A stretch of DNA of 64,000 bases from Candidatus Sungiibacteriota bacterium (GCA_016180435.1 JACPBG010000003.1:13791-77790), one strand, 5' to 3'; shown: positions 2 through 64,000, numbered from the stretch's first letter. The notes: generated from the letters alone by a model not told the origin. Program-made: numbers and translations.

Positions 2-2140
2 GAGCTTCATGAAAAAAGCGGCGGCGCGAAAAATCAATATATTTTTATGCGGCATGGCCAGGCCGTGACTAATGTACGCGATATCGTGTCTACCGATCCG
101 GGCGGAAATTATTCCTTGACTCTTCGTGGCAGAACACAGGCAGAAAAAGCCGGAGAAAAACTAAAAAGCAAAAAAATTGACATCATTTTTTCATCCGATA
201 TTTTGCGCGCCAAGGAAACAGCTGAAATTGTAGCGGGCAAACTCGGTATTAAATCCATCCGGCTCGATGAGCGTCTGCGCGAGATTATTGTCGGGGAATT
301 TGAGGGGCGTTCCATCGGCGCGTACCGTGGTTTTTTTGCGGACGCGCGAGCCCGTTTTACAAAGGCTCCGCCAGGCGGCGAAACATTGCATGATGTACGG
401 CGGCGCGCAATTTCTTTTTTGTACGAATTGGAACGAAAATACGAGGGCAAAACCATTCTTATCGTAAGCCACGGCGATACGCTCTGGATGATGGGCAATA
501 CTGCGCGCGGTTTTTCGGAAGAAGAAGTTTGTGCGCTAAATTTAATGCCCGGGGATGAGGCCACACCCTTTGCGGAGCCGTATGAGGTGGCATATAAAAA
601 TCTGCCGCGGGACGAGACCGGAGATATAAATTTACATCGTCCGTATGTAGATTCGTTTCTGCTGATTTGCCCGAAATGCCGCGGCTCTATGCATCGCGTG
701 TCTGAGGTCGCGGACGTGTGGTTTGATTCTGGAGCAATGCCATACGCGAGCGTTCACTATCCGTTCACGCCCGCGCAAATTCCAAATTCCAAACTCCAAA
801 TCATAAACAAATTCCAAACCCCAAACTCCAAATTCAAAATTCCGTTTCCAGCTGATTATATAGCAGAAGCCGTGGATCAGACGCGCGGATGGTTTTATAC
901 GCTGCTTGCGGTAGCGGTGCTTTTGGGCAAAGGAACGCCATATAGGAATGTAATTTCTCTCGGCCATGTTTTGGATAAAAACGGGCAGAAAATGTCTAAG
1001 TCTAAAGGCAATGTGGTAAATCCGTGGGAAATGATTCAAAAATACGGAGCCGATGCCTTGCGCTGGTATTTTTATACTATAAATTCTCCAGGCGAGCCGA
1101 AGCGTTTTGACGAAAAGGACTTATTGCAGAAATTACGCGGATTTTTAATGACGTTTTGGAACAGTTTTGTTTTGTTTGACACATACATTGATAAAATTCC
1201 AAATTCCAAATTCCAAATTCCAAACAAATCCCAAAGAAAAAATCCAAAAATTCAAAACGTTTTGGATCAGTGGATTATTTTGAAACTGGATATGCTTACG
1301 GCATTCATCACGGAGAAGTTGGATCAGTACGATATCACAGCTGCGGCGCGCGCTATAGAGGATTTTACCGTCATTGATTTTTCGCAATGGTTCTTGCGCC
1401 GTTCGCGCCGCCGTTTTCAGCATCCGGAGTCAATGAAAGAAAAAAATGAAGCAGCAACAACCGCGGCCATAGTTTTGGAAACCCTTTGCCGGATTTCTGC
1501 GCCTTTTGTGCCGTTTCTTTCCGAGGCAATATACCAGGAACTCCGTAAAAAGGGAAAATACAAGGAAACGAGCGTGCATCTTACGGAGTGGCCCATAATA
1601 AAATCAAAAATCAAAATTCCCGCCCCCGCTAAGGCTTCGGCGGACAGGCAAAAATCAAAATTACTGAACGACATGGAGATTGTACGGGATGTTGTAGCAG
1701 AGGCATTGAAATTACGGGCGCAAGCGGGAATTAAGGTAAGACAACCATTACAAGAACTTAGAATCAAGAACTTAGAACTTAGAAATCAGTCGGGACTGCT
1801 TGAATTGATAAAAGACGAGGTGAATGTGAAAAAAATAACTTTCGGAAAAGAACTTAAACTTGATATAAAAATTACGCCGGAATTGAAAGAGGAGGGCTGG
1901 GTGCGTGAATTTATCCGCAATATTCAGGAAATGCGTCGCGATGCCGGGCGAAAACCAGGCCAAAAAATCAGTTGTCAGATTATGGGCTCGCAGAAACTTG
2001 AGCAAATCATGGAGCGCTGGACCAAATTCATTAAAAAAGAAACGAATACGACTGAATTTAAAGTCGGAGGAAAGCGCGTATTCAAAATAGAGCGGGAGGT
2101 TGAATTCGGCGAAGAAAATTTATGGATAGGAATTTCGTAA
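2..2140 (+). CDS. ileS: Isoleucyl-tRNA synthetase, C-terminal two-thirds (5'-truncated at window edge), with an N-proximal histidine-phosphatase (phosphoglycerate-mutase family) domain in the same ORF
   Basis: The frame is open from nt 2 through the annotated M47, so the gene continues upstream. Residues IFMRHGQ...SHGDTLW give the RHG and second-His signature of the histidine phosphatase fold. These are followed by the IleRS hallmarks LHRPYVD, CPKC, VWFDSG and KMSKS (KMSKSKGNVVNPWE) and an anticodon-binding region. Four in-frame repeat insertions are present. Confidence 0.85.
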   Translation, partial: ELHEKSGGAKNQYIFMRHGQAVTNVRDIVSTDPGGNYSLTLRGRTQAEKAGEKLKSKKIDIIFSSDILRAKETAEIVAGKLGIKSIRLDERLREIIVGEFEGRSIGAYRGFFADARARFTKAPPGGETLHDVRRRAISFLYELERKYEGKTILIVSHGDTLWMMGNTARGFSEEEVCALNLMPGDEATPFAEPYEVAYKNLPRDETGDINLHRPYVDSFLLICPKCRGSMHRVSEVADVWFDSGAMPYASVHYPFTPAQIPNSKLQIINKFQTPNSKFKIPFPADYIAEAVDQTRGWFYTLLAVAVLLGKGTPYRNVISLGHVLDKNGQKMSKSKGNVVNPWEMIQKYGADALRWYFYTINSPGEPKRFDEKDLLQKLRGFLMTFWNSFVLFDTYIDKIPNSKFQIPNKSQRKNPKIQNVLDQWIILKLDMLTAFITEKLDQYDITAAARAIEDFTVIDFSQWFLRRSRRRFQHPESMKEKNEAATTAAIVLETLCRISAPFVPFLSEAIYQELRKKGKYKETSVHLTEWPIIKSKIKIPAPAKASADRQKSKLLNDMEIVRDVVAEALKLRAQAGIKVRQPLQELRIKNLELRNQSGLLELIKDEVNVKKITFGKELKLDIKITPELKEEGWVREFIRNIQEMRRDAGRKPGQKISCQIMGSQKLEQIMERWTKFIKKETNTTEFKVGGKRVFKIEREVEFGEENLWIGIS
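781..846. repeat. In-frame CCAAAT/TTCCAAA-type heptad repeat run inside ileS (encodes IPNSKLQIINKFQTPNSKFKIP)
   Basis: ttccaaattccaaactccaaatcataaacaaattccaaaccccaaactccaaattcaaaattcc; the reading frame is preserved. Confidence 0.8.
1196..1262. repeat. Second in-frame TTCCAAA repeat run inside ileS (IPNSKFQIPNKSQRKNPKIQN)
   Basis: ttccaaattccaaattccaaattccaaacaaatcccaaag...; the frame is preserved. Confidence 0.8.
1752..1790. repeat. In-frame GAACTTAGAA-type repeat inside ileS (QELRIKNLELRNQ)
   Basis: agaacttagaatcaagaacttagaacttagaaatc. The same motif family recurs in tatD (15974-16003), leuS (20856-20890) and mfd (62815-62850). Confidence 0.75.
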
Positions 2141-2842: not shown

Positions 2843-4585
2843 TTGGTTCGTAGAATTCTCTGGCGAAATGAAAAAACGCTCTATAAGCGGAGTTGTGACG
2901 TTCCGGGACATACGGAGCAATTACTTTCTACGTATTCGGCTGAAAAGCCGTTTAACGTTTATGACCAAAAGTATTGGTGGTCAGATGTATGGGATCCTCT
3001 GCAATTCGGGAGGAAATATGATTTTACACAGCCATTTTTTGAACAATTCCGGCAACTCATTCGGGCGGTTCCGCATCCTATACTTTTGACCGAGTATACT
3101 ACCTGTATAAATAGCGATTATTCCAATTGGGCCGGGGAGCTTAAAAATTGTTATTTAATCTCCGATGCGGATGTGGTGCAGGATTCCGCATACGGATCAG
3201 GAGTGTTTAACTGTAAAGATTGTTTTGATAACGGGAATATCTCGGAATCCGAACTATCGGCGCATAATTTCAATGTGCGTAAGTGCTACCGTACTGTTTT
3301 TTCGGTAGATTGTTCGTCATGTACGGAGGTATGGCTATCTAAAAATTGTATCGGATGCACAAATTGCTTTGGTTGCGTTAATTTAAGAAATAAATCTTAC
3401 CACATTTTTAATGTCCCCTACGATAGAGATAACTATTTTAAAAAATTGGAAGAATTCCGGCTCGGATCATTTGAAAATTTTGAAAAACTGCGGTTTGAAG
3501 CGGAGAAATTTTGGAATGCGCAGCCACAGAAATATATGCGAGGATTTTCTAATACGCGAACCTCGGGTGATTATATCTATCACTCCAAAAATGTTCAGCA
3601 CGGTTTTTTAATTACCGGCGTGGAAGATAGTAAATTTGTAGTTCTTACTCATGTTCCTTCTACGAAAGATTGCTATGACTATACGGATTGGGGATATGGA
3701 GCGGAGCGGCTATATGAATGTATGACGGTGGGGCTAAAGGCGAGTGATATAAAATTTAGTCACATTGTTTTCAGAAATGTGATGGATGTACAATACAGTT
3801 TTTGGTGCGGATCCGGATCATCAAACCTTTTTGGCTGCATCGGCCTCCGCTCCAAATCCTACTGCATCCTAAACAAGCAATACACCAAAGAAGAATACGA
3901 AACACTCGTCCCCAAGATCATTAAACACATGAACTCCATGCCTTATATAGATAAGAAAGGAAGAGTATATAAATATGGTGAATTCTTCCCTCCAGAGCTC
4001 TCTCCCTTCGCATATAACGAAACCATAGCCCAGGAATACTTTCCTTTAACCAAGGAACAAGCCATAGAGCAGGGATATGCCTGGAAAGACCCCGAGGAAC
4101 GAAATTACAAAATCCAAATTCCAAATGATAAACTACCGGATCACATTAAAGACGTTCCCGACGATATCGTGGGGCAGGTGATAGAGTGCGGCCATGCCAT
4201 ACAAGAATCAAGAAGCATGAATCATGAATCAAGAGTAATCTGTAACGAACAATGTACCGAAGCCTTTAAGATCATCAAACCCGAACTGGAGTTCTACCGT
4301 AAAATGAACCTGCCCCTGCCCCGTTTATGCCCCAATTGCCGGCATTACCAGAGAATCAAGCAAAGAAACCCCCTCCGCCTCTGGCACCGCCAATGCATGT
4401 GCCAAGGCGCAAAATCCCAAATCTCAAATTCCAAATCCCAAACAAATTCCAATTTCCAATATAAAAACACTGCCGCTCATTCCCACGGACCAAGTCCCTG
4501 CCCCAATGAGTTTGAGACATCTTACGCTCCGGAGAGACCGGAGATAGTTTATTGCGAGGCCTGTTACAATACGGAGATTATTTAG
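2843..4585 (+). CDS. Cysteine-rich repeat protein with zinc-ribbon motifs (C..C..RNKSY-type repeats, C-terminal CxxC...LPLPRLCPNCR ribbon). The N-terminus appears disrupted (frameshift or deletion near 2796-2806).
   Basis: The long ORF has repeated units (CSSCTEVWLSKNCIGCTNCFGCVNLRNKSYHIFN and CGSGSSNLFGCIGLRSKSYCILN) and a C-terminal ribbon ELEFYRKMNLPLPRLCPNCR. An ATG at 2766 encodes MTRQCQNCKQ in another frame, and VPPPTWCPECR continues in the 2843 frame. The ORF in the 2843 frame has no ATG and uses a TTG start. Confidence 0.55.
   Translation: MVRRILWRNEKTLYKRSCDVPGHTEQLLSTYSAEKPFNVYDQKYWWSDVWDPLQFGRKYDFTQPFFEQFRQLIRAVPHPILLTEYTTCINSDYSNWAGELKNCYLISDADVVQDSAYGSGVFNCKDCFDNGNISESELSAHNFNVRKCYRTVFSVDCSSCTEVWLSKNCIGCTNCFGCVNLRNKSYHIFNVPYDRDNYFKKLEEFRLGSFENFEKLRFEAEKFWNAQPQKYMRGFSNTRTSGDYIYHSKNVQHGFLITGVEDSKFVVLTHVPSTKDCYDYTDWGYGAERLYECMTVGLKASDIKFSHIVFRNVMDVQYSFWCGSGSSNLFGCIGLRSKSYCILNKQYTKEEYETLVPKIIKHMNSMPYIDKKGRVYKYGEFFPPELSPFAYNETIAQEYFPLTKEQAIEQGYAWKDPEERNYKIQIPNDKLPDHIKDVPDDIVGQVIECGHAIQESRSMNHESRVICNEQCTEAFKIIKPELEFYRKMNLPLPRLCPNCRHYQRIKQRNPLRLWHRQCMCQGAKSQISNSKSQTNSNFQYKNTAAHSHGPSPCPNEFETSYAPERPEIVYCEACYNTEII
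4411..4460. repeat. In-frame TCCCAAA/TTCCAAA repeat run in the Cys-rich protein gene (KSQISNSKSQTNSNFQYKN)
   Basis: aaaatcccaaatctcaaattccaaatcccaaacaaattccaatttccaat. Confidence 0.75.
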
Positions 4586-4818: not shown

Positions 4819-4868
4819 TTTCTTATCTTCTCTAATTCGCGTGAATTAGAGAATAGCAGAATACGTAT

Positions 4869-12878: not shown

Positions 12879-12965
12879 GAAGACAAATTTTCAATTTTTA
12901 ATTATCAATTTCCAAACAAATAAAGTATAACATTATTAGATAAAAAAAGAAGCGCTGGTGGGCGC

Positions 12966-13460: not shown

Positions 13461-14972
13461 ATGTATCATAAAGCTATTATGCCGTCAAGCGAAAAGGAAA
13501 CTTTCTATATAACCACCACCCTGCCTTATGTAAATGCGGATCCGCATATCGGGTTTGCTTTGGAAATTATTCAGGCCGATGTGATCGCGCGGTATAAGCG
13601 TCAGCAGGGGTATGATGTAATATTTAATACAGGCACGGATGAGCACGGGTTAAAAATTTATCGCAGGGCGCTTGAAGAAAAAAAAGATCCGCAAAAATAC
13701 GTGGACGAACTTGCTCCGCGATTTGAACGCCTGAAATCCGCGCTTAATTTAAGTTACACCCATTTTATCCGCACCACCGATCCGCATCACAAGCTCGCGG
13801 CACAGGAATTTTGGAAACGGTGCCGGGCCGCGGGTGATATATATAAAGCGGCGTATCATACCAAATATTGCGTGGGATGCGAGCTTGAAAAGACCGACTC
13901 CGAACTTGAAGATGATCGCTGTCCCGTCCATCCCAATCTGCAAGTTGAGATAATTGAAGAAGAGAATTATTTTTTCAGATTTTCCAAATATGAAAAACCG
14001 CTTCTCGGATTCTTCGCAGAGAATTCAAAATTCGTACTTCCGGAACACCGTTTTAACGAGGTTAAAAATTTTGTGGCTTCGGGTCTGCGTGATTTCAGTA
14101 TTTCGCGCCGATCCGAGAAAATGCCATGGGGCGTTTCGGTCCCGGATGATCCGGAGCATGTTATGTATGTCTGGTTTGATGCTCTGGTAAATTACATTTC
14201 CACCCTGGGCTGGCCGGAAGATAGGGTAAATTTTAGCGCATACTGGCCGGGCATGCAGGTTGCGGGAAAAGACAATTTGAGGCAGCAGGCCGCTATGTGG
14301 CAGGCTATGCTTTTGTCTGCGGGGATTCCCAATTCAAAACAGATTTTTATCCACGGATTCATTACGGTAGACGGAGAGAAGATGTCAAAGTCCCGCGGAA
14401 ATGTAATTGATCCGGCGGAGCTTGTTCAAAAATATAGCACAGATTCAGTTCGATATTATCTGCTGCGTGAAATTCCGTCCGGCGAGGACGGGGACTTTTC
14501 ATATAAAAAATTTGAAGATAGATACAACGGGGATTTAGCCAATGGACTGGGGAACCTGGTCGCAAGAGTTGTAACGCTTGCGACCAAAGTCAAAAGTCCC
14601 GCCAGGGGCGAGGCTCGCTTGAGGCGGCAAAAACCAAAAGCCAAAACCGAAGTTCAAAATATAAAATTAATCCCTGAACTGAAAAATGTAAAAGAAAATT
14701 ATGAAAAGGCGATGGAGGAGGTACGGCTGATTGAGGCGCTGGAAGAAGTATGGAAATTAATTCATATAGCGGATAAATATGTGAATGAAGAAAAACCATG
14801 GGAAAATAAAAAGCCGGAAGTGATTTCCGATCTTTTGTTTCTGATTCTTGAAATCGCGTCTTTGCTTAACCCGTTTTTGCCCGAAACCGTGGAAAAAATA
14901 AGGGAACAGATAAAAATTGCCGACGGTCAATTTGAGATAAAAAAAAGCGAAAATTTGTTTCCACGGCTATGA
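13461..14972 (+). CDS. metG: Methionyl-tRNA synthetase
   Basis: PYVNADPHIGFALE (HIGH-type), KMSKSRGNVIDP, and an anticodon-binding helical domain. The alternative start at 13479 is equally plausible. Contains the in-frame 35-bp palindromic element at 14598-14633. Confidence 0.88.
   Translation: MYHKAIMPSSEKETFYITTTLPYVNADPHIGFALEIIQADVIARYKRQQGYDVIFNTGTDEHGLKIYRRALEEKKDPQKYVDELAPRFERLKSALNLSYTHFIRTTDPHHKLAAQEFWKRCRAAGDIYKAAYHTKYCVGCELEKTDSELEDDRCPVHPNLQVEIIEEENYFFRFSKYEKPLLGFFAENSKFVLPEHRFNEVKNFVASGLRDFSISRRSEKMPWGVSVPDDPEHVMYVWFDALVNYISTLGWPEDRVNFSAYWPGMQVAGKDNLRQQAAMWQAMLLSAGIPNSKQIFIHGFITVDGEKMSKSRGNVIDPAELVQKYSTDSVRYYLLREIPSGEDGDFSYKKFEDRYNGDLANGLGNLVARVVTLATKVKSPARGEARLRRQKPKAKTEVQNIKLIPELKNVKENYEKAMEEVRLIEALEEVWKLIHIADKYVNEEKPWENKKPEVISDLLFLILEIASLLNPFLPETVEKIREQIKIADGQFEIKKSENLFPRL
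14598..14633. repeat. GGCGAGGCTCGC-centred palindromic element (cccgccaggggcgaggctcgcttgaggcggcaaaa) in-frame in metG (SPARGEARLRRQK)
   Basis: Near-identical to 18065-18098 in leuS. Related copies lie at 49555-49600 (topA) and 63625-63659 (pth). Confidence 0.85.
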
Positions 14973-15577: not shown

Positions 15578-16459
15578 ATGTCAACTCTAAAGTTATTTGA
15601 TGTCCATACTCATACTCAATTTGCCGCATTTAAGGATGAAATCGATGTGGTGATTAAACGCGCGCTGGACGCCGGGATCTGGTTGGTAAATGTGGGAACC
15701 CAGCGCGATACTTCGGCCAAGGCAGTTGAAATAGCGAATAAATATTCGGAGGGAGTATATGCAACAGTCGGGCTTCATCCTATTCATACGGAAAAGTCAT
15801 TCCACGACGAAAAAGAATTGGGTGCGTTAGTGTTCTCTAATTCGCGCGAATTAGAGAATAAGAACTTGCCTGGATTTTTAAGTCGAGCAGAAGAATTTGA
15901 TTATGAGTATTACAAAAAATTAGCCGAAGATCCGAAAGTTGTTGCGATCGGGGAGTGCGGGCTGGACTATTATAGAACTAAGAATTTAGAACTTAGAACT
16001 AAGCAGTTTGATACTTTTAAAAAACAGATTGAGTTGGCGGTTGAATTAAAAAAACCATTGATGATTCATTGCCGTAACGCCTTTGAAGATTTGATCGACA
16101 TTCTACAAACTACAAACTATAAACTAAAATCCGGTATAATACATTTTTTCTCCGGTACCGTAGAAGATGCGCGAAAACTTTTGGATCTCGGATTTTCATT
16201 TTCTTTCGGTGGTGTTATAACGTTTACCCGAGATTACGATGAAGTCGTGAAATATATGCCACTGGAGCGAATCTTGCTGGAGACCGATGCGCCATATGTG
16301 GCACCGGTTCCATATCGCGGGAAACGCAATGAACCATTGTATGTTGTGGAAGTAGCAAAAAAAATAGCGGAGCTTAAAGCCGTTGCGCCAGGCGATATAG
16401 AAAGAATTACAACCGAAAACGCCTTGAAAATATTCGGAATAAAAAATGACCGCGATTAG
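15578..16459 (+). CDS. tatD: TatD-family metal-dependent deoxyribonuclease/hydrolase
   Basis: LFDVHTHTQF (HxH), a conserved E, and an HF.S..GG motif. Contains in-frame GAACTTAGAA and CTACAAACTA repeat insertions (15974-16003, 16108-16135). Confidence 0.8.
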   Translation: MSTLKLFDVHTHTQFAAFKDEIDVVIKRALDAGIWLVNVGTQRDTSAKAVEIANKYSEGVYATVGLHPIHTEKSFHDEKELGALVFSNSRELENKNLPGFLSRAEEFDYEYYKKLAEDPKVVAIGECGLDYYRTKNLELRTKQFDTFKKQIELAVELKKPLMIHCRNAFEDLIDILQTTNYKLKSGIIHFFSGTVEDARKLLDLGFSFSFGGVITFTRDYDEVVKYMPLERILLETDAPYVAPVPYRGKRNEPLYVVEVAKKIAELKAVAPGDIERITTENALKIFGIKNDRD

Positions 16460-17497: not shown

Positions 17498-20400
17498 ATG
17501 CGCTATTTTCCCCACAAAATAGAAAAAAAGTGGCAAAAAATTTGGCTGAAAATGGAAATCTATGAACCCGACATCAAGAAAACCAAAAAGCCGTTTTATA
17601 ATTTAATGATGTTTCCGTATCCTTCCGCCGAAGGACTGCATGTTGGGAATATGTACGCGTTTACCGGCGCGGATATTTATGGTCGTTTTATGCGGATGCG
17701 GGGGCGTGATGTTTTTGAGCCGATCGGCCTTGATGGTTTCGGGATCCATTCGGAAAATTTTGCCATGAAAATTGGGAGGCACCCGGCGGATCAGGCCAAA
17801 ATTTCGGAGAAAAATTTTTACCGTCAGCTTGAGGCGCTTGGAAACGGGTTTGCTTGGTGTGAACGGCTTGAAACATATAACCCCGAATATTATAAATGGA
17901 CCCAATGGATTTTTGTGCAAATGTTTAAACGCGGCCTTGCCTATCGCAAAAAGCAGGCAGTGAATTGGTGTCCCAACTGCAAAACAGTGCTTGCGGATGA
18001 GCAGGTCATACAGAAATCCGAAATCCGAAATCCGAAATCCGAAACAAATTCGAAATTCGAAATTCCCGCCGGAGGCGAGGCTCGCTCGGGGCGGCAAAAT
18101 TCAAAACAAAAAATCACGATTGGCGTATGCGAACGATGCGATACGCCGGTGATTAAAAAAGAACTGGAGCAATGGTTTTTCAAAATAACGGATTATGCCG
18201 AGCGGCTTCTCGGAAATCTTGCAAAACTTGATTGGTCGGAGCGCGTCAAAATCGCGCAAAAAAACTGGATCGGGAAATCCGAGGGCGCTTTAATCAAATT
18301 TCCAATTTCCAATTTCCAATTTCCAATTAAGGATCTTGATTTTGTATTTATCCATGGATATAAAGGCGATTCACGGGATATTTTTTGGCCATGGTTTAGA
18401 AAAGAAATCGAACGTAGAGGCGCTAAGGTCTTTGCCCCCGACTTGCCCAATTCAGATGCGCCTAATATAAATGAACAGGTTCAATATGTTTTAAAGCAAC
18501 ATTCATTTAGCGAAAAGACCGTTATTGTGACTCACTCTTTGGGGGGCGTGGTTGCTATGAAATTATTGCCTTTATTGCACGATAAAATAGAACGGCTTTT
18601 GCTGGTGGCACCGCCTCTTCGGACGGAATTTCTGGATGGAAAAAAACGCCCGGCTTTAGAGGACGCTTGTGATTGGAAATTCAATTTTAATGAAATTAAA
18701 AAACACGCGAGGAATATTAGTGTTTTAGCAGATACGGAAGATCATGTTGTGTCCTTGGATCAACTCGTAGAAATTGCCGGACAGCTTAATGCCAGATTAC
18801 GGAAAACTGTGGCGAGTGCCCCGCATTTTAGAGAAATTGTAGAGCCGGAAATCGTAAACGAATTGTTTCCGGAAATTGAGATTTTTACCACGCGGCCGGA
18901 CACGCTTTTTGGAGCAACGTACCTCGTACTCTCGCCAGAGTACGAGGAAATTTCCAATTTCCAATTTCCAATTTCCAATCGCGGGGAAGTTGACGAATAT
19001 ATTAAAAATACGAAAGCTAAAACCGAGGAGGAAAGAATTTCCGAAGGCAGAGAAAAAACCGGAGTTGAATTAAAAGGAATAAAAGTTATAAATCCGGTAA
19101 ACGGCGAGGAAATCCCGGTGTGGGTTGCGGATTATGTTTTGGGCGGAGTGGGGATGGGCGCTATTATGGCGGTTCCGGCGCATGATGAGCGCGATTTTGA
19201 GTTCGCGAAAAAACACGATTTGCCGATTAAGACAGTCGTCGAATCATTCTACATTCAAAAAGAGGAACCGGGCGTATATAGAGAAAATGAATCAATCGTA
19301 CCGCGGGACGGGATAATTACAATTATCAAGCATTGGTCTGAAGATAAATATATTGGTCTTAAATGGAAAAAGGTTGCCTGGGGAACATTTCTTACGGGTG
19401 GCATAGAGAAAGGGCAAACCGCGGAACAGGCCGGAGTTGCTGAAATTTTGGAAGAAACAGGATATCTTCACCCCAAGTTTATTCGAGAACTTGGCATAAC
19501 GCACGGGCTTTTTTATCACGTTCCCAAAAAAGAGAATCGTCTTGTGCATGCACATATTCTCTATTTTGAATTGCAGGATGGGGCCCGGACCGAGATATCC
19601 GAAAAAGAGCAAGAGATTCATGATATAAAATGGTTGACTCTAAAAGAGCTTAAATCTTTCCTTACCCCCGCTACTCATACTTATGCCCTTGATTTATTTA
19701 GGGAGGGAATAAAAGTATATACGGGCGGGGGAATTCTTTGTAATTCCGGAGAATTCAACGGTATGGATTCAGAAAAGGCCAAATTGGAAATTACGAAATT
19801 CGTCTGCGGAGAGCGTAAAATTCAGTATCGCTTGCGGGATTGGTTGATTTCGCGACAAAGGTATTGGGGACCTCCAATTCCAATGATTTTTTGCGAGAGC
19901 TGCAAAAAATCACTGGAAAATTCCAAATTCTCGAAAGGAGAATTAGAAAATCCCGGATGGACAGCGGTGCCGGAAAAGGATTTGCCGGTAAAATTGCCGT
20001 ATGTGAAAAATTTCCGGCCGACCGGTACGGACAAATCACCCCTTGCCACTGTTAAAAAATTTTACAAAGTTCGCTGTCCCAAATGTAAATCTTGGGCTCG
20101 TAGGGAAACCGATGTTTCGGACACTTTCCTGGATTCGGCATGGTATTATTTACGCTATCCGAGCGTAAAAATGCAAAATTCAAAAATCAAAATGCAAAAT
20201 GAAAATTCAAAATCTAAAAATATAGAAATTCCTTGGAATTCGGAAATTACTAAAAAATGGACACCGGTGAACATGTACATAGGCGGAGCAGAACATTCTG
20301 TGCTTCATCTTCTTTACTCTCGTTTTTTAGCAATGGCGTTTAAGGATTGGGGATTGACGCATTTTGAAGAACCATTCACAAAATTTCGCGCGCATGGGCT

Positions 20401-21121
20401 TTTGATAAAAGACGGAACGAAGATGTCAAAGTCCAGGGGGAATGTGGTCAATCCGGATGAGTATATTAGAGCGTATGGCGCGGATGCTCTGCGTATGTAT
20501 TTGATGTTTTTGGGGCCGTTTGAGCAGGGCGGGGATTTTCGGGATGACGGGATCAGGGGAATAACACGGTTTTTGGAGAGAGCATACAAACTAATTTCCA
20601 ATTTCCAAAATCCAATTTCCAAACAAATTCCAAATTCAAAATCACAAATTCAAAAAATATTACACCAGACAATTAAGAAAGTAACGGAAGATATTGAGAA
20701 CCTGCAATACAATACGGCGATTTCGGCTTTAATGATACTTTTGAATAAGTTTGAAGAAAATCCGTCCGCAGTTACTAAAGAACACGTTTCAATATTTTTG
20801 CGATTGTTGGCTCCGGTTGCGCCCTTCATAACGGAGGAATTGTGGAGTATGTTTCCTACAAACTACAAACTACAAGCTACAAGCGTACATAAAAATAAGT
20901 GGCCGGAATATGACCCGAAATTGATTCAAGAAGACACGTTTGAGCTGGTGGTCCAGATAAACGGCAAAGTGCGGGACAAATTTGAGGCTCCGATTGATGT
21001 CTCTGAAGATAATGCAACCCGTTTGACTTTGGGGCGGGAGAGGGTTAAGAGTATAGTTGGAACCTTAAAACCGCGTAGGATTATTTTTGTCCCGAAGCGG
21101 TTGATAAATATCGTGATTTAG
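17498..21121 (+). CDS. leuS: Leucyl-tRNA synthetase carrying two extra inserted domains in one continuous ORF: an alpha/beta serine hydrolase (about 18329-18830) and a Nudix-like domain (about 19290-19720)
   Basis: LeuRS motifs: PYPSAEGLHVGN (HIGH-type), TTRPDTLFGATYLV, AVPAHDERDFEFA (editing Asp), NSGEFNGMD, YRLRDWLISRQRYWGPPIP and KMSKSRGNVVNP. The insert FIHGYKGD...THSLGG (GxSxG) resembles a YdeN/RBBP9-type hydrolase. The insert GGIEKGQTAEQAGVAEILEETGY is a Nudix-box-like sequence in which E is replaced by Q and R by A. At least six in-frame repeat insertions are present. Confidence 0.9.
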   Translation: MRYFPHKIEKKWQKIWLKMEIYEPDIKKTKKPFYNLMMFPYPSAEGLHVGNMYAFTGADIYGRFMRMRGRDVFEPIGLDGFGIHSENFAMKIGRHPADQAKISEKNFYRQLEALGNGFAWCERLETYNPEYYKWTQWIFVQMFKRGLAYRKKQAVNWCPNCKTVLADEQVIQKSEIRNPKSETNSKFEIPAGGEARSGRQNSKQKITIGVCERCDTPVIKKELEQWFFKITDYAERLLGNLAKLDWSERVKIAQKNWIGKSEGALIKFPISNFQFPIKDLDFVFIHGYKGDSRDIFWPWFRKEIERRGAKVFAPDLPNSDAPNINEQVQYVLKQHSFSEKTVIVTHSLGGVVAMKLLPLLHDKIERLLLVAPPLRTEFLDGKKRPALEDACDWKFNFNEIKKHARNISVLADTEDHVVSLDQLVEIAGQLNARLRKTVASAPHFREIVEPEIVNELFPEIEIFTTRPDTLFGATYLVLSPEYEEISNFQFPISNRGEVDEYIKNTKAKTEEERISEGREKTGVELKGIKVINPVNGEEIPVWVADYVLGGVGMGAIMAVPAHDERDFEFAKKHDLPIKTVVESFYIQKEEPGVYRENESIVPRDGIITIIKHWSEDKYIGLKWKKVAWGTFLTGGIEKGQTAEQAGVAEILEETGYLHPKFIRELGITHGLFYHVPKKENRLVHAHILYFELQDGARTEISEKEQEIHDIKWLTLKELKSFLTPATHTYALDLFREGIKVYTGGGILCNSGEFNGMDSEKAKLEITKFVCGERKIQYRLRDWLISRQRYWGPPIPMIFCESCKKSLENSKFSKGELENPGWTAVPEKDLPVKLPYVKNFRPTGTDKSPLATVKKFYKVRCPKCKSWARRETDVSDTFLDSAWYYLRYPSVKMQNSKIKMQNENSKSKNIEIPWNSEITKKWTPVNMYIGGAEHSVLHLLYSRFLAMAFKDWGLTHFEEPFTKFRAHGLLIKDGTKMSKSRGNVVNPDEYIRAYGADALRMYLMFLGPFEQGGDFRDDGIRGITRFLERAYKLISNFQNPISKQIPNSKSQIQKILHQTIKKVTEDIENLQYNTAISALMILLNKFEENPSAVTKEHVSIFLRLLAPVAPFITEELWSMFPTNYKLQATSVHKNKWPEYDPKLIQEDTFELVVQINGKVRDKFEAPIDVSEDNATRLTLGRERVKSIVGTLKPRRIIFVPKRLINIVI
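18013..18064. repeat. In-frame GAAATCC/GAAATTC heptad repeat in leuS (IQKSEIRNPKSETNSKFEIP)
   Basis: gaaatccgaaatccgaaatccgaaatccgaaacaaattcgaaattcgaaattcc. Confidence 0.8.
18065..18098. repeat. GGCGAGGCTCGC palindromic element copy in leuS (cccgccggaggcgaggctcgctcggggcggcaaaa; AGGEARSGRQ)
   Basis: About 90% identical to the metG copy at 14598-14633. Confidence 0.85.
18297..18328. repeat. In-frame ATTTCCA repeat x4 in leuS (FPISNFQFPIKD)
   Basis: aatttccaatttccaatttccaatttccaatt. Confidence 0.8.
18949..18980. repeat. In-frame ATTTCCA repeat x4 in leuS (ISNFQFPISN), preceded by an 11-bp inverted repeat cctcgtactct/agagtacgagg (18922-18948)
   Basis: atttccaatttccaatttccaatttccaatcg. Confidence 0.8.
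20168..20222. repeat. In-frame AAAATGCAAAAT/TTCAAAA repeat in leuS (KMQNSKIKMQNENSKSKN)
   Basis: aaaatgcaaaattcaaaaatcaaaatgcaaaatgaaaattcaaaatctaaaaa. Confidence 0.75.
20594..20655. repeat. In-frame TTTCCAA/ATTCAAA repeat in leuS (ISNFQNPISKQIPNSKSQIQKI)
   Basis: atttccaatttccaaaatccaatttccaaacaaattccaaattcaaaatcacaaattcaaaaa. Confidence 0.8.
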
Positions 21122-32535: not shown

Positions 32536-32582
32536 CGTAGCTTCGAGGCTAAACCTCGATAGTTAACTATCGAGGTTTAGCC
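32536..32582. repeat. Near-perfect 20-bp-arm palindrome tcgaggctaaacctcgatag TTAA ctatcgaggtttagcctc upstream of tsaC
   Basis: Read directly. Same motif family as the in-frame palindrome at 62960-63010 in mfd. Confidence 0.8.
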
Positions 32583-32605
32583 TCTGTTGCATTTGTCTAT
32601 AGTTT

Positions 32606-37351: not shown

Positions 37352-38722
37352 ATGGCAATGCAATATAAAAACGTAAAAAAATATGATAGGGAGATTTATA
37401 ATCTTATCCGTGAAGAAGAACGAAGGCAGAAAGATGGGTTGGAACTTATCCCTTCGGAAAGTTACGCATCCGCCGCTGTGCTTGAGGCCCTGGGCAGTAT
37501 TTTGAATGACAAATATGCGGAGAATTATCCGGGAAAACGCTATTACGGCGGGTGCGAGACCGTGGATAAGGTGGAACGGTTGTGCCAGGAACGCGCCTTA
37601 AAAGTTTTTCGCGCGCAAGGATACAAAGTAAATGTCCAGCCCTATTCCGGAAGTCCGGCCAATATTGAGGTGTATGCGGGATTGCTTGATTTTGGAGATA
37701 CGATCATGGCTTTGCGCTTGGATCATGGCGGCCACTTGACCCACGGTTCTCCGGTAAGTTTTTCAGGTAAGGCATACAAATTTATTCATTATGGAGTTGA
37801 TCCAAAAACTGAATGTCTTGATTATGACGAAATTGCGCGGCTCGCCCAAAAACATAAGCCCAAAATTATTCTTTCCGGATTTACCGCCTATCCGCGGCTG
37901 ATAGATTTTAAAAAAATGCACGCGATTGCAAAATCTGTCGGCGCAATTTCCATGGCGGACATTTCGCATATTTCGGGACTTATCATCGGCGGCGCTCATC
38001 CCTCGCCTTTTCCGTTCACGGATGTGGTGACAACTACTACGCATAAAACCCTGCGCGGTCCGCGCGCGGCTATGATATTTTCTCGAAAAGATAAAAGTAT
38101 AAAGATAAAAGATAAAAACGTCTTGATTTCTGAAGCTATTGATAAGGCAGTTTTCCCCGGCATGCAGGGCGGGCCGCATGAGCACACGATCGCGGCAATT
38201 GCCGTGGCTTTGCACGAGGCAAAAAAACCGGAATTCAGAAAATTTGCGGAGCAGGTGGTTAAAAATGCCAAAGTACTTGCCATAGCCATCCAAAAAGAAG
38301 GACTCCGTTTAATTTCGGGGGGAACCGATAATCATCTGATGTTAATTGATTTACGGCCGTTTGGCCCGGGTAGGGGAAAATTTATTGAAAAAGCATTGGA
38401 GGCAGTACGTATTAGTGTAAACAAAAGTCCTATTCCCAATGACCCTTCGCCGCCGTTTTATCCGTCCGGAGTCCGTCTGGGCACCCCGGCGATAACCAGC
38501 CGCGGCATGAAAGAAAAAGAAATGCGTGTTATTGCGGGATTTATCGCGCGTGTGGTGCGGGAATTTTCGCACGTCATACTGCCGGAGGAAAAATCCGAGC
38601 GCGCCACGGCGGTACGTGAATTTACCCAGAAACTTTCTCGCAGCCAATTTGTCAAAAAAATAGGTAGTGAGGTTAAACAGTTCGCATCAAGATTTCCGGT
38701 CCCGGGGATTGACACGAAATAA
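37352..38722 (+). CDS. glyA: Serine hydroxymethyltransferase
   Basis: SHMT motifs (LIPSENY-type N-terminus, PLP-Lys region TTTTHKTLRGPR). Has an in-frame AAAGATAAAAG repeat at 38086-38116 (KDKSIKIKDKN). Confidence 0.95.
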   Translation: MAMQYKNVKKYDREIYNLIREEERRQKDGLELIPSESYASAAVLEALGSILNDKYAENYPGKRYYGGCETVDKVERLCQERALKVFRAQGYKVNVQPYSGSPANIEVYAGLLDFGDTIMALRLDHGGHLTHGSPVSFSGKAYKFIHYGVDPKTECLDYDEIARLAQKHKPKIILSGFTAYPRLIDFKKMHAIAKSVGAISMADISHISGLIIGGAHPSPFPFTDVVTTTTHKTLRGPRAAMIFSRKDKSIKIKDKNVLISEAIDKAVFPGMQGGPHEHTIAAIAVALHEAKKPEFRKFAEQVVKNAKVLAIAIQKEGLRLISGGTDNHLMLIDLRPFGPGRGKFIEKALEAVRISVNKSPIPNDPSPPFYPSGVRLGTPAITSRGMKEKEMRVIAGFIARVVREFSHVILPEEKSERATAVREFTQKLSRSQFVKKIGSEVKQFASRFPVPGIDTK

Positions 38723-49425: not shown

Positions 49426-51537
49426 TTACGCGGATTTTTCTTTTGTTTCTAGCTCTGATAGAGGATTTGTCCACGATGCAAAATCGCAGTTGGGGTAGCG
49501 CGAGCATCCGAAAAACACTTTGCCTCGGCGCGTGCGCCGCATGATCACGTCTCCCCCGCCCGCCGGGGCGGGCGAGGCTCGCCCGTCTTTGATGGGCGGC
49601 TCTGCGCATTTCGGACACTTCATGCCAATGGTTTGGGGCTCTTGTTTCAGGGTCTTGGTTGTTTTGCAATCGGGGAAGCCGGAGCAGGCCAAAAATTTTC
49701 CAAATCTTCCAAGTTTAACAATCATGGGTTTTCCGCATTTTTCGCAAATTTCGTCCGTGGTTTCGGCAATTTCATGTTTTTTCACCTCTTCGTATTTTGA
49801 TTCAAGATGCTTGGCGAATGGCTCGTAAAATTCGCGGATAACCGGCTGCCACTCCATTTTTCCTTCGGCTATCTCGTCCAGTTCCTCCTCCATTTTAGCA
49901 GTAAATTGTATGTCCACGATTTCCGGAAAGTGTTCGACCAGCATATCGTTTACCAGAAATCCGACCTCGGTGGGTTTTAGATACCTCCGTTCATGGCGTT
50001 CAACGTATTTTCGGGCAAGAATTGTGGAAATAATAGGAGCATAAGTGGATGGCCGGCCAATGCCATTTTTTTCAAGAGTTTTTACCAAGGTTGCTTCTGA
50101 AAAACGCGGCGGCGGCTGGGTAAAATGCTGAAGGGGTTTTAACTCCCGGCATTCAAGTCGATCGTTTTTGGCAAGTTCCGGAAGTTCGGCTTCGGAAAAT
50201 TTCATGGGGTAAATTTTGAGGAACCCGTCGAATTTCATAACTTGTCCCGTTGCCCGAAAAGTATAGCTGGTAGCTGGTAGCTGGTAGCTGGTAGCTACGG
50301 CAATATCTATGCTGGTGGCATCAAATATTGCCGCTGGCATTTGTGATGCGATAAATCTTCGCCAGATCATGTCATAGAGCCGGAATTGGCGCTGGTCCAG
50401 GAACTTTTTAATGGACTCCGGAGTGCGTCGAGGATCGGTTGGCCGAATGGCTTCATGGGCCTCTTGCGCTCCCCTGGAAGTTGTTTTGAACCGGCGGGGT
50501 GAGGCCGGGGCATAGCGATCTCCCAACTCTTTTTTCAAGAATGCCGCGGCATCGCGCAGTGAGTCCTCGGAAAGATTAAGCGAGTCGGTCCGCATGTATG
50601 TGATAAGTCCGGTGGATCCCTCGTCTCCGAGTTCAATTCCCTCATAAAGCTGCTGGGCGAACATCATGGTTTGTTTGGAAGAAAATCCGAGGCGGCGGAA
50701 CGCATCTTGTTGAATAGTTGAGGTCATGTATGGAGGAAGAGGATTTTTGGATACTGCTTTTTTTTCCACTTCATTTATCGTCCACTCCGCATTTTCCAGA
50801 TTTTTAACAATTTTTTCTGACTCTTCCGCGCTTGCGATATCAAATTTATCCAGCGTCTTATCCCCGATTTTTACTAAATTCGCTTCAAACTGCTGTTCGT
50901 GCTGTTGGTTTTCTGTTCGCGTTGTTTGTGTTTTGAGGAGCGAAGCGACGATAGACCAATATTCTTTGGTCTTAAAATTTTGAATTTCTCGTTCCCGCTC
51001 CACAATCAGGCGCACCGCAACGGACTGCACTCGTCCGGCGGATAGGCCGCGATACATTTTTTTCCACAAAAATGGCGATAGTTTATATCCTACCAGCCGG
51101 TCAAGGATCCGGCGCGCCTGCTGGGCATCAACCTGTTTTAGGTCAATATCGCGCGGATTTTTTAAAGCGTCATTTATGGCGCGTTCAGTTATTTCGTGAA
51201 ATACGATCCTTTCGATGTTATCGCCCGGCCGATCTTCGAGTCCGAGTGCGCTGATAAGATGCCAGGCAATGGCCTCTCCCTCGCGGTCTTCGTCGGTCGC
51301 GAGTATTATTTTATCCGCGGACTTGGCTTCTTTTTTTAATTGGTTTACGTTTTTCCGGCTTTTTAAGGGGATTATATAGCGCGGTTCGAAGTTTTTTTCT
51401 ACATCAATTCCAAGATCGGATTTGGGCAAATCGCGCACGTGGCCATAGCTTGATTCCACAATAAAATCGCTCCCTAAGAATCGGGAGATGGTTCGGGCTT
51501 TGGTGGGACTCTCAACTATTACTAAACTTTTTGCCAT
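49426..51537 (-). CDS. topA: DNA topoisomerase I
   Basis: Toprim N-terminus MAKSLVIVESPTKARTISRFLG, catalytic Tyr region, and C-terminal CxxC zinc ribbons. Has in-frame inserts (the GGCGAGGCTCGCC element at 49555-49600 and the CTACCAG x4 repeat at 50264-50296). Confidence 0.95.
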   Translation of the reverse strand: MAKSLVIVESPTKARTISRFLGSDFIVESSYGHVRDLPKSDLGIDVEKNFEPRYIIPLKSRKNVNQLKKEAKSADKIILATDEDREGEAIAWHLISALGLEDRPGDNIERIVFHEITERAINDALKNPRDIDLKQVDAQQARRILDRLVGYKLSPFLWKKMYRGLSAGRVQSVAVRLIVEREREIQNFKTKEYWSIVASLLKTQTTRTENQQHEQQFEANLVKIGDKTLDKFDIASAEESEKIVKNLENAEWTINEVEKKAVSKNPLPPYMTSTIQQDAFRRLGFSSKQTMMFAQQLYEGIELGDEGSTGLITYMRTDSLNLSEDSLRDAAAFLKKELGDRYAPASPRRFKTTSRGAQEAHEAIRPTDPRRTPESIKKFLDQRQFRLYDMIWRRFIASQMPAAIFDATSIDIAVATSYQLPATSYTFRATGQVMKFDGFLKIYPMKFSEAELPELAKNDRLECRELKPLQHFTQPPPRFSEATLVKTLEKNGIGRPSTYAPIISTILARKYVERHERRYLKPTEVGFLVNDMLVEHFPEIVDIQFTAKMEEELDEIAEGKMEWQPVIREFYEPFAKHLESKYEEVKKHEIAETTDEICEKCGKPMIVKLGRFGKFLACSGFPDCKTTKTLKQEPQTIGMKCPKCAEPPIKDGRASPAPAGGGDVIMRRTRRGKVFFGCSRYPNCDFASWTNPLSELETKEKSA
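49555..49600. repeat. GGCGAGGCTCGCC palindromic element copy in-frame in topA (encodes GRASPAPAGGG on the minus strand)
   Basis: cccgcccgccggggcgggcgaggctcgcccgtctttgatgggcggc. Confidence 0.8.
50264..50296. repeat. In-frame (AGCTGGT)x4 heptad repeat in topA (ATSYQLPATSYQ on the minus strand)
   Basis: agctggtagctggtagctggtagctggtagcta. Confidence 0.8.
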
Positions 51538-51720
51538 AATTTATAAAAATACAAAATATAGGAACCAAAATTCAAGCAGGGATTAAAATTCAAAATTCAC
51601 CTAATTCCTAATTCACCTAATAAAATTTTTAAGGCCCGAATTCTTAATTGCTTTATTAGATATTTTATTAGAAATTAGACAATTAGGTAATTAGGAATTT
51701 ATCTTAATGGGCTTTGTGTT

Positions 51721-63463: not shown

Positions 63464-64000
63464 TCAGGTGTTTTTGTTGATTATTCCCACTGCTTTTTCC
63501 TGTTCTCCGGTTGCGAATGCCCCGACGCCCTCAAAGATTTTCTTTTCGAGTTTGCGGATTTGTTTTTGTTCATCCGGTTTAAGTTTCTGCAACACAAGCT
63601 TTTCCGCCTCTACGCGTTTTTTGCGCCCGCCTTTGGCGAGGCTCGCCCCAAAGGGCGGCTGGATTCCGACACGAAGCCGCCAAAAATCCCAACTTCCTAA
63701 AGCGCGTTTTATCGATTCCACCCCTTTATGGCCTGCTGAATGCTTATGGAATGAAAGTTTGGCGCGGCCAAGCAAAATATCGGCGTCATCATGAAGCACT
63801 ATCGTATCACGCGGTTTTACTTTATAAAATCGGGCTACGGGACCCGCGGCATTTCCGGATTTATTCATAAAGGTATCGGGCAGGAGTAGTGTGGCTTTTA
63901 TTTTTTCGATTCTGCCTTCGGAAATAAGCGCGTTCCATTTTTTTTCAAATTTAAATTCTGGAAAGCCGAATTTATTTCCGATGGATTGTGCGGTTTCGCG
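63464..64000 (-). CDS. pth: Peptidyl-tRNA hydrolase (5' end beyond window)
   Basis: Reverse-strand translation continues past the annotated Met to the window edge (…IGNKFGFPEFKFEKKWNALISEGRIEKIKATLLLPDTFMNKSG…HKHSAGHKGVESI). Contains an in-frame GGCGAGGCTCGCC element at 63625-63659. Confidence 0.85.
   Translation of the reverse strand, partial: RETAQSIGNKFGFPEFKFEKKWNALISEGRIEKIKATLLLPDTFMNKSGNAAGPVARFYKVKPRDTIVLHDDADILLGRAKLSFHKHSAGHKGVESIKRALGSWDFWRLRVGIQPPFGASLAKGGRKKRVEAEKLVLQKLKPDEQKQIRKLEKKIFEGVGAFATGEQEKAVGIINKNT
63625..63659. repeat. GGCGAGGCTCGCC palindromic element copy in-frame in pth (PFGASLAKGG on the minus strand)
   Basis: cccgcctttggcgaggctcgccccaaagggcggct. Confidence 0.8.

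Follow-up and report, generated by a model that had tools for sequence, protein, structure and literature searches.

Heptanucleotide tandem arrays within housekeeping genes of a Candidatus Sungbacteria bacterium and its relatives

The window and its arrays

The stretch of DNA considered here, 64,000 nucleotides of Candidatus Sungiibacteriota bacterium (GCA_016180435.1, JACPBG010000003.1:13791-77790) that are referred to below in their entirety as the window, carries a set of housekeeping genes whose coding sequences contain head-to-tail arrays of a 7-nucleotide unit. The host is a groundwater bacterium of the Candidate Phyla Radiation (CPR), a member of the Parcubacteria ('Candidatus Sungbacteria'). 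The closest relatives of its LeuRS and TatD proteins come from metagenome-assembled Parcubacteria named Candidatus Sungbacteria, Liptonbacteria or Paceibacterota, and its TatD is 100% identical to a TatD deposited at NCBI under 'Candidatus Sungbacteria bacterium'. The arrays, about 20-22 in total (about 20 in a tolerant scan), are hosted by ileS, an open reading frame (ORF) rich in cysteine codons, metG, tatD, leuS, glyA, topA and mfd, and by two intergenic sites. They are given below by coordinates and strand, followed by unit, copy number and, where determined, encoded peptide.

776..846, plus strand: ileS array 1, about ten imperfect copies of CAAATTC/CAAACTC-type units; encodes QIPNSKLQIINKFQTPNSKFKIP
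1194..1262, plus strand: ileS array 2, AAATTCC in 4.4 copies, perfect over 1194-1224 and then running into a degenerate tail; encodes KIPNSKFQIPNKSQRKNPKIQN
1600..1625, plus strand: short ileS array, AAAATCA in 2.4 copies
1751..1790, plus strand: ileS AGAACTT array of period 7/14; encodes QELRIKNLELRNQ
4102..4126, plus strand: array in the Cys-rich ORF, AAATTCC-like, 3.6 copies
4202..4234, plus strand: array in the Cys-rich ORF, CAAGAAT/CATGAAT, 4.7 copies
4411..4460, plus strand: array in the Cys-rich ORF, AAATCCC-type, 4.4 copies and more
12886..12925, no strand assigned: intergenic array, AATTTTC-type
14587..14660, plus strand: metG composite of AAAGTCA units, a hairpin element at 14599-14627 and CAAAAAC/CAAAAGC units
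15973..16003, plus strand: tatD array A, AGAACTT-type, 4 copies; encodes YRTKNLELRTK
16103..16135, plus strand: tatD array B, CTACAAA in 3.4 copies; encodes LQTTNYKLK
18013..18112, plus strand: leuS zinc-loop composite of GAAATCC in 4.6 copies with GAAATTC units, a hairpin element at 18066-18094 and an AAAATTC-like tail
18297..18328, plus strand: leuS array, AATTTCC in 4.6 perfect copies; encodes KFPISNFQFPI
18949..18980, plus strand: leuS array, AATTTCC in 4.4 perfect copies, equal in length to the native loop; encodes EISNFQFPISN
20168..20222, plus strand: leuS array, about 7 copies of AAAATKC-type units; encodes KMQNSKIKMQNENSKSKN
20587..20655, plus strand: leuS array, about 9 copies of TTCCAAA/AATTTCC-type units
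20856..20890, plus strand: leuS array, CTACAAA in 3.9 copies; encodes PTNYKLQATS
38086..38117, plus strand: glyA array, AAAAGAT in 4.6 copies; encodes RKDKSIKIKDKN
50264..50296, minus strand: topA array, 4.7 perfect copies reading TAGCTGG on the plus strand and AGCTACC on the coding strand; encodes VATSYQLPATSY
51585..51699, no strand assigned: intergenic cluster upstream of topA with AAAATTC, CCTAATT and ATTAGAA units
62815..62850, minus strand: degenerate mfd array, coding strand TCCAAGT/TGTCAAC/TCCAAGT/TCTAAGT
63401..63422, minus strand: mfd array at the very 5' end of the ORF, ACATCTG in 3.1 copies, CAGATGT on the coding strand; encodes IRCQMSDV

The last of these may belong to a 5' leader if the true start codon of mfd sits further downstream. 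The peptide HYPFTPAQIPNSK is a stretch of IleRS across an array junction. The Cys-rich ORF (2843-4585), which encodes 580 residues with many CxxC motifs and contains three heptamer arrays, gave no match in a Pfam search.

The restriction to a single period was established by counting maximal exact self-matches at each lag and comparing runs of at least 10 matched positions with dinucleotide-style shuffles of the window. Lag 7 yielded 13 such runs against 0.05 expected, and lags 2-6 and 8-15 yielded none. The excess at lag 7 persists among shorter runs, down to 5-6 matches. Of the 57 rows that Tandem Repeats Finder returned for the window, 25 have period 7, and most of the remaining rows are multiples of period-7 arrays or overlap them; no array of period 3, 6 or 9 was found in the window. 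The thresholds that define an array are arbitrary, but they were equal for all periods. Tandem units of 7 nucleotides, joined head to tail and extending further than chance allows, are the mark of heptanucleotide long simple-sequence repeats (LSSR).

A sequence-only reading of the window had described heptad repeats that are embedded in housekeeping genes and keep the frame. All the sites that it listed exist, the ORFs that contain them are open and the unit is indeed 7 bases, with some corrections: the runs at 1600-1616, 14628-14646 and 38101-38117 are short (2.4-2.7 copies), the site at 62815-62850 is a degenerate array, the arrays at 4102-4126, 4202-4234 and 63401-63422 had been overlooked, and what had been taken for a GAACTTAGAA decamer at 1752-1790 resolves into the heptamer AGAACTT with period 7/14. 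That reading also named the findings that would overturn it, namely that the runs are assembly artefacts or the hosts frameshifted pseudogenes. A contig assembled independently in Logan (SRR4343430; present in 4 samples) matches the window at 100% identity across 5,828 bp with five arrays. The host ORFs all stay open through the arrays, and Pfam matches to IleRS, MetRS, TatD, LeuRS, SHMT, TopA and Mfd lie on either side of them. The identity of the independent contig and the intact ORFs with Pfam domains on both flanks therefore exclude an artefact of assembly or sequencing as well as gene decay; every array in the window is moreover shorter than one sequencing read, and orthologous arrays are present across many unrelated metagenomes, which leaves this explanation with a negligible probability.

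Distribution among relatives

Period-7 arrays also occur in related genomes. Contig L002, which is syntenic with the window and belongs to a related species (LeuRS about 66-71% identical), contains 10 of them within 9.6 kb and no array with another period. The 80 metagenome loci that surround relatives of LeuRS (938 kb) hold 119 strict period-7 arrays versus 0-4 at any other period; the period-7 arrays cluster in the nearer relatives and are missing from the distant ones (about 40% identity). A further 80 named genomes (1.35 Mb), which comprise only distant LeuRS relatives (at most 47% identity) and hence provide a taxonomic control but no strains, hold 56 period-7 arrays versus at most 9 at other periods. 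The named-genome arrays fall mostly in Patescibacteria of several classes, and most loci from gut Bacillota, Melainabacteria and similar groups have 0-1, with a count of 3 in one Chloroflexia locus. Since related loci share phylogeny, these counts do not represent independent events. The period-7 signal is a property of the lineage and not of the window alone, and the over-representation of period 7 together with the presence of several units per genome agrees with what is known of heptanucleotide LSSR.

Particular units are shared between genes and genomes that are unrelated. CAGATGT is found both in mfd of the window (63401-63422) and in the LeuRS gene of another genome (L039, position 3905), and CTACAAA in TatD and LeuRS of two species (window 16103 and 20856; L002 3588 and 8353). 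L002 has CTACAAA at the site orthologous to the leuS array 20856..20890, and it carries AGAATCA at the site orthologous to tatD array A.

Observations outside the immediate relatives concern viral and more distant bacterial contigs. Four viral contigs from IMG/VR (L168, L173, L174 and L175), retrieved with three copies of AATTTCC, have 4-7 period-7 arrays each, made of various units and accompanied by nearly no arrays of other periods; their G+C content is 0.52-0.68, several being at 67-68%. The presence of period-7 arrays on viral contigs indicates that the underlying process is not limited to CPR. A Chloroflexia metagenome-assembled genome (L118) has arrays of AGTGGTC/ACTGACC heptamers. The longest array observed, an intergenic GTAGATG array of 123 nt, lies in a Patescibacteria-like locus (L053, 19496-19618).

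Placement in genes and in protein loops

When the window and the array-bearing loci are pooled, with ORFs in the related loci assigned heuristically as long open frames, 112 of 132 arrays (85%) are inside long ORFs, which make up 89% of the sequence. Since the share of arrays in ORFs does not exceed the coding share, the arrays are not attracted to genes. Within genes, their positions are far from random. Only 4 of the 96 LeuRS residues encoded by arrays are invariant, compared with 30% of residues overall (Fisher p = 7e-11). Across 49 LeuRS orthologues, arrays are concentrated at residues 266-277 (22 orthologues), 454-462 (17) and 484-496 (15), with further positions at 889-917, 1032-1050, 1090-1101 and 1118-1129; the window arrays at 18297..18328 and 18949..18980 are at the positions used in 22 and 15 of the 49 orthologues, respectively, and the former sits in the hairpin that joins the catalytic core to the editing domain. 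In an AlphaFold model of TatD based on an alignment of 74 sequences (predicted local distance difference test, pLDDT, 84.5), array A takes up the loop behind strand 121-130 together with the opening turn of helix 137-157. Array B covers the end of helix 169-178 and the loop that precedes strand 187-189. Both arrays thus occupy loop and helix-end positions, in agreement with the expected surface-loop placement, and the segments are modelled as ordered (pLDDT 83-86). Within genes, the arrays lie in tolerant surface loops of essential proteins and avoid conserved residues.

The view that the arrays are expanded insertions holds for some sites and fails at others. Compared with IleRS of T. thermophilus (1ILE), ileS array 1 is an insertion of 17 residues and ileS array 2 one of about 6; the glyA array adds 11 residues relative to a Bacillus SHMT (1KKJ), and the leuS zinc-loop array is a net insertion that is missing from most orthologues. 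At LeuRS residues 484-496 and at the TatD sites, in contrast, the arrays replace the native loop with little or no change in its length. The 15 orthologues with an array at LeuRS 484-496 have segments of identical length built from different units (AATTTCC, GAATTAA, AAAATTG, AATTAAA, AATTGCA, AATCTCA, AATATCA, AGAATCA and others), all ending at an invariant Asn codon AAT, and the orthologues without an array have non-periodic DNA of unchanged length at this place. The peptide at TatD site A is RLG-EETKEKQ in most homologues and, one residue longer, RIKNQESRIKQ or RTKNLELRTKQ in a subset of them. Site B is hypervariable, with 73 distinct peptides in 74 homologues, mostly of 13-16 residues, and shows 29% identity at a lag of 7 residues versus 3-5% at the other lags from 3 to 9. 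Arrays form or turn over in place at orthologous sites: native loops are turned 7-periodic, or kept so, while the unit drifts and its copies stay alike, a pattern that amounts to concerted evolution under a constraint on length.

Because lone steps of 7 nt would frameshift essential genes with lethal outcome, length-neutral change of this kind requires conversion, balanced gain and loss, or steps of three units. Variants differing by exactly 7 residues were seen neither at LeuRS 484-496 nor at the TatD sites, which mildly favours the copying of bases between neighbouring units without a change in length. Transient misalignment or conversion, and not repeated gain and loss of units, would then keep the copies homogeneous.

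Stop codons, composition and length

Since translation of a heptamer array passes through all of its three frames, a stop triplet anywhere in the cyclic unit is dangerous. Consensus units with a stop on the sense strand account for 28% of the in-gene arrays, compared with 54% of random units of equal composition, whereas 80-85% of the consensus units of intergenic arrays hold a stop on either strand. In the 27 in-gene arrays that do have a stop in their consensus, all 30 in-frame occurrences are altered by one base (TAA to TTA, CAA or TAT, among others), and 61 of 75 out-of-frame occurrences keep the stop triplet. In the ileS array at 1751..1790, the TAG within the AGAACTT-array unit never falls in frame. 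A lack of in-frame stops is in itself expected, since an open ORF was the condition for inclusion; the informative point is that the deviation from the consensus is limited to the in-frame copy.

The coding strand of the arrays is composed of 48% A and 9% G, on whichever DNA strand the gene lies, and the heptad peptides that it encodes are hydrophilic, as exemplified by IPNSKFQ, SNFQFPI, TNYKLQ and RIKNQES. Arrays in genes are short, mostly of 4-5 copies and at most 53 nt long, the perfect ones clustering at 30-36 nt, and one intergenic array reaches 123 nt. The sequence-only reading had attributed the maintenance of the frame to selection, and this is borne out by the avoidance of invariant residues and by the individual change of would-be in-frame stops. 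Judged from these sequence patterns, the arrays clearly appear to be read in frame and filtered by selection.

Comparison of strains

Three sets of nearly identical contigs, in which few intergenic arrays were covered, allowed copy numbers to be compared. The window and its Logan twin, at 100% identity, do not differ in any of five arrays. L002 and L163, which are 98.55% identical over 9.1 kb, share 10 arrays with no difference in copy number. In three contigs at 99.7-99.98% identity, two arrays are identical and the sole indel is intergenic and outside arrays. The arrays are thus stable between strains, and the length polymorphism by one unit that is associated with LSSR was found in none of these three sets. 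The single array that differs between L002 and L163, at TatD site B (TACAAAC... versus TTGATTCATGCTTC...), lies within a tract of about 215 nt that holds 78 differences. Recombination that replaced the allele, and thereby swapped one array for another, is the likely cause. A separate difference between the same two contigs is a 24-nt in-frame indel in leuS (L002 8126-8130 versus L163 8316-8344), located between the inverted arms ATTCTTCG...CTAAGAAT.

These comparisons bear on the proposal, made in the sequence-only reading together with the expectation of slippage polymorphism between strains, that the arrays are contingency loci or phase-variable linkers in which gain or loss of units toggles genes. 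Since 7 is not a multiple of 3, a change by one unit shifts the frame, and heptanucleotide tracts are reported to cause phase variation of some genes of Haemophilus and E. coli. Phase-variable tracts, whose copy number differs between or within strains and alters the frame or the spacing of the promoter, are, however, located in or upstream of dispensable genes, typically with surface, restriction-modification or virulence functions, whereas the hosts here are housekeeping genes, among them single-copy essential enzymes (IleRS, LeuRS, MetRS, TopA) whose OFF state would be lethal. No copy-number difference was found at any of the three levels of identity, the length of orthologous arrays is kept across deep divergence, and in-gene arrays have few copies. 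The essential nature of the hosts and the lack of strain differences rule out contingency behaviour as far as the assemblies show, and a role as genetic switches is therefore extremely improbable.

Hairpin elements, palindromes and inserted domains

Two of the composite arrays contain a genome-specific, GC-rich hairpin element of the form CCGCC-N4-7-GCGAGGCTCGC-N4-12-GGCGG. It is 29-41 nt long and present in four copies in the window, always in frame:

14599-14627, plus strand: copy in metG, inside a heptamer array
18066-18094, plus strand: copy in leuS, inside a heptamer array
about 49561..49601, minus strand: copy in topA, in frame, outside arrays
about 63628..63660, minus strand: copy in the ORF 63464-63868, in frame, outside arrays

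All four copies fold as hairpins and their core is conserved; its 11-nt form GCGAG[GC]CTCGC was not matched anywhere in the 2.43 Mb of other loci that were compared. The copies in metG and leuS are each flanked by '...TC' and 'CAAAA...'. Two relatives, P0007 and P0009, have the leuS zinc-loop array without the hairpin element, and the array is therefore probably older than the hairpin insertion. L006, which had been considered a further case of this array without the element, was discarded, its composite array occupying another site. That the repeats might serve as landing pads for a mobile element, as had been proposed, gains some ground from the location of two of the four hairpins within arrays and loses it through the lack of conserved array flanks: no conserved flank, target site or element end was found around 98 arrays (maximum 0.14 bits). 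The co-location of hairpins and arrays is weak evidence, being equally explicable by permissive loops that both share.

Self-complementarity was also considered as the source of the register itself. A model in which mini-hairpins with a 4-bp self-complementary core and a 3-nt loop would set the 7-nt register was rejected, as palindromic tetramers are not enriched as a class; they are present in 50% of units versus 38-43% expected, and half of the units have none.

Some longer palindromes are found in the window, and those in frame may represent a second class of mini-insert. The palindrome TTCTCTAATTCGCG|CGCGAATTAGAGAA at 15826-15865 is in frame in a hypervariable loop of TatD and encodes FSNSRELEN, a site that reads FSNSQEFEN or SYSQEYEN in homologues; an arm of it is repeated intergenically at 4820-4861. 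A nested palindrome, KFPSAWKLSFQK, is in frame in mfd (61680-61729), and a perfect 20+20 palindrome is intergenic (32545-32584).

Two of the synthetases in the window have extra domains. LeuRS (17498-21121, 1207 residues) has an alpha/beta-hydrolase (serine-hydrolase) domain and a NUDIX domain in and around its editing domain, and IleRS (2-2140, running off the left end) has a His_Phos_1 histidine-phosphatase domain inserted before the zinc-binding segment. Relatives have both, one or neither of the extra domains. A scenario in which the hydrolase domain of LeuRS was a mobile cassette between the two AATTTCC arrays was abandoned, since the domain is conserved in the clade. The left AATTTCC array is part of the hairpin between core and editing domain, a hotspot of arrays that is shared by orthologues lacking the hydrolase domain, the right one is 20 residues inside the editing domain, and the right junction of the hydrolase domain has no array. 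The hydrolase, Nudix and histidine-phosphatase domains are clade-conserved domain insertions and not cassettes bounded by arrays.

Origin of the arrays

The reading to which we give moderate preference is that the arrays are heptanucleotide microsatellites that arise from a lineage-wide tendency to misalign DNA in a 7-base register, are filtered by selection and are translated as hypervariable loops. During replication or repair, the strands would misalign by 7 bases, and either a unit would be duplicated or bases would be copied from one unit onto its neighbour. Weakly constrained sequence would in this way turn 7-periodic, and its copies would be kept alike by concerted evolution. Because about 89% of the genome is coding, most arrays would come to lie inside genes. 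There, purifying selection would retain those that are in tolerant loops and linkers, whose net length changes are divisible by 3, whose orientation yields an A-rich, G-poor coding strand and hydrophilic heptads such as IPNSKFQ and TNYKLQ, and whose in-frame stop has been lost by a point change. Since 7 = 2 x 3 + 1, translation runs through each of the three frames once in three units and yields a peptide with a single 7-residue period, so that the arrays would be translated as ordinary hypervariable surface loops and would not act as switches.

Several points weigh against this account. None of the results explains the register of 7, for which the footprint of the polymerase is a proposal from the literature; the molecular cause given above is accordingly one that we infer. 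No length polymorphism of 7 or 21 nt was detected between strains in the three comparison sets, and the process was never caught acting. Plain slippage, which proceeds in 7-base steps that are lethal in essential genes, does not by itself explain the length-neutral replacement of loops, and neither transient misalignment or conversion nor compensated gain and loss was directly observed. The distribution is patchy within the lineage, a close relative (L007) having no arrays in about 25 kb. Finally, 98 in-gene arrays consist of 56 distinct units compared with about 86 expected from composition, and AATT is 3-fold over-represented in the units. Such a narrow repertoire or the AATT excess could signal a sequence-specific agent instead of generic slippage. 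It is a possibility worth keeping in mind, although tentatively, that an as yet undescribed process in Parcubacteria copies DNA at a fixed 7-base offset, overwrites loops and homogenises copies, and gives rise to heptad loops and hairpin insertion sites. If true, fixed-offset copying would represent a separate source of new protein sequence in CPR bacteria, with each lineage placing its own heptamer in the same loop at the same length, and would supply orthologue-anchored cases in which the preference of bacterial repeats for 7 bases could be worked out.

Selection might also have acted in favour of the arrays, by providing hypervariable or flexible loops that escape recognition by a host, a phage or a partner, or by creating new disordered regions. 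The same loops are reused across many orthologues, TatD site B shows the diversity of peptides described above, the repertoire of units is restricted and hydrophilic, and tandem repeats of Borgs are reported to create selected disordered regions (PMC9879509). However, arrays are no more frequent in genes than the coding fraction predicts, intergenic arrays exist whose units are full of stops, the TatD arrays are modelled as ordered, and the hosts, being enzymes of the cytoplasm, have no evident use for a variable surface, all of which makes an adaptive origin unlikely. Less likely still is a mobile or templated agent that would have produced the arrays or used them as targets, whether through repeated insertion and excision that leaves footprints with 7-bp target duplications, by short-template synthesis or with the arrays as preferred landing pads for hairpins. 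Such an agent would account for the two hairpin copies with the GCGAGGCTCGC core inside the metG and leuS arrays, the latter of which probably predates its hairpin, and for a narrow unit repertoire with identical units in unrelated genes and genomes. An in-frame mobile element is, however, recognised by a family consensus, defined ends, terminal inverted repeats or a palindrome and often target-site duplications, and the arrays have many mutually unrelated units and flanks of at most 0.14 bits. They formed in place at constant length, the other two hairpins are outside arrays, the confinement of both to permissive loops could by itself explain their co-location, and no transposase or reverse transcriptase was found linked to arrays, the window's remaining ORFs being without annotation.

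A different proposal would regard the arrays as nucleic-acid signals, either as sequences of which each heptamer would be bound by one single-strand-binding or cold-shock-type protein, or as tracts that affect translation or mRNA stability. A role in the regulation of translation has been proposed for intergenic TAACTGA repeats that closely precede start codons, and CspB has been reported to bind heptamer direct repeats (PMC4679880); one intergenic cluster in the window is also upstream of a gene, topA. Since units differ between sites and between orthologues, there is no common recognition sequence, and most arrays are deep within ORFs. An Rfam scan of the window matched tRNA-Leu alone, which likewise speaks against an RNA signal. 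Such a function is thus very improbable. We regard the misalignment of strands in a 7-base register, followed by selection, as the most probable origin of the arrays.

Comparison with known repeat systems

Heptanucleotides were described by Mrazek, Guo and Shah in 2007 as the most abundant LSSR in many prokaryotes; the match between 7 nt and the DNA segment held by the polymerase is suggested to favour slippage, and repeats within genes are said to tend to unit lengths divisible by 3 (PMC4679880, PMC4692102). This bacterial 7-base excess has been known since then and never explained, and the published cases are mainly intergenic, with positions that cannot be matched between species. In the arrays considered here the orthologous address, the native sequence and the structural context are known, so that their birth, homogenisation and decay can be reconstructed on a phylogeny, and array load could be correlated with the content of replication and repair genes across thousands of CPR genomes. 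The tracts inflate and diversify CPR proteins by low-complexity inserts in aminoacyl-tRNA synthetases, TopA and SHMT, and such inserts may lead to errors when the proteins are aligned, placed in phylogenies or annotated for domains. In an incomplete coverage of the literature, no report that connects heptamer or simple-sequence repeats with CPR, Patescibacteria or Parcubacteria was found.

The arrays share with prokaryotic heptanucleotide LSSR the head-to-tail 7-nt units, the many units per genome, the singling out of period 7, the patchy phylogeny and the presumed origin by slippage. Published LSSR (Xanthomonas, Nostoc, Burkholderia and others) are mainly intergenic, and their in-gene units are said to favour multiples of 3, whereas 85% of the arrays in the window and its relatives are in ORFs, essential genes included, and have period 7. 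In contrast to published LSSR, they are found in a CPR host and reappear in the orthologous loops of its relatives, where the length is conserved and the unit is specific to the lineage. The TAACTGA repeats of Beggiatoaceae, cyanobacteria and Bacteroidetes consist of one dominant unit and are mostly found just upstream of start codons; the few in ORFs have a stop-free orientation, encode heptads of the LSVISYQ type and are located in variable loops, as in an RNA polymerase beta'-like protein, and the intergenic sets of Cyanothece strains differ mostly by indels in increments of 7 nt (PMC4679880). The present arrays resemble TAACTGA repeats and the heptameric short tandemly repeated repetitive (STRR) sequences of cyanobacteria in having 2-6 or more copies, some of them in ORFs with heptad peptides in variable loops. 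They differ in that TAACTGA or CCCCAGT-like units before start codons are replaced by dozens of others (AAATTCC, AATTTCC, CTACAAA, AGAACTT and more), mostly in genes, and in showing no 7-nt indel polymorphism between the strains compared.

The hairpins within arrays have a possible parallel in Nostoc punctiforme, where very small dispersed repeats (SDR) that form hairpins are reportedly embedded in heptamer arrays, as Elhai and colleagues are said to have described in 2008. The hairpins of tens of nucleotides in the metG and leuS arrays are similar to SDR in this respect, whereas their four copies per 64 kb are all in frame in genes and of unrelated sequence, and their mobility is only a candidate property. 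Rickettsia palindromic elements are selfish palindromes of 100-150 bp with a family consensus that are in frame in protein genes. The present arrays share with them the tolerance and translation of extra in-frame DNA at the surface of housekeeping proteins, but are 20-70 nt long and have neither consensus nor palindromy, so that the hairpins and palindromes of the window fit this comparison better. The in-ORF repeats of Borgs reportedly have unit lengths divisible by 3, are longer and are said to be read as selected disordered regions. As in those tandem repeats (PMC9879509), perfect and recent tandem copies in ORFs add low-complexity peptide. Here, in contrast, a 7-nt unit gives rise to a peptide period solely because every frame is read in turn, and the TatD arrays are ordered in the model. 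Taken together, the arrays are of the same general kind as the known heptanucleotide excess, from which they differ by the lack of strain length polymorphism, by their host, by their location within genes and by their recurrence at orthologous sites.

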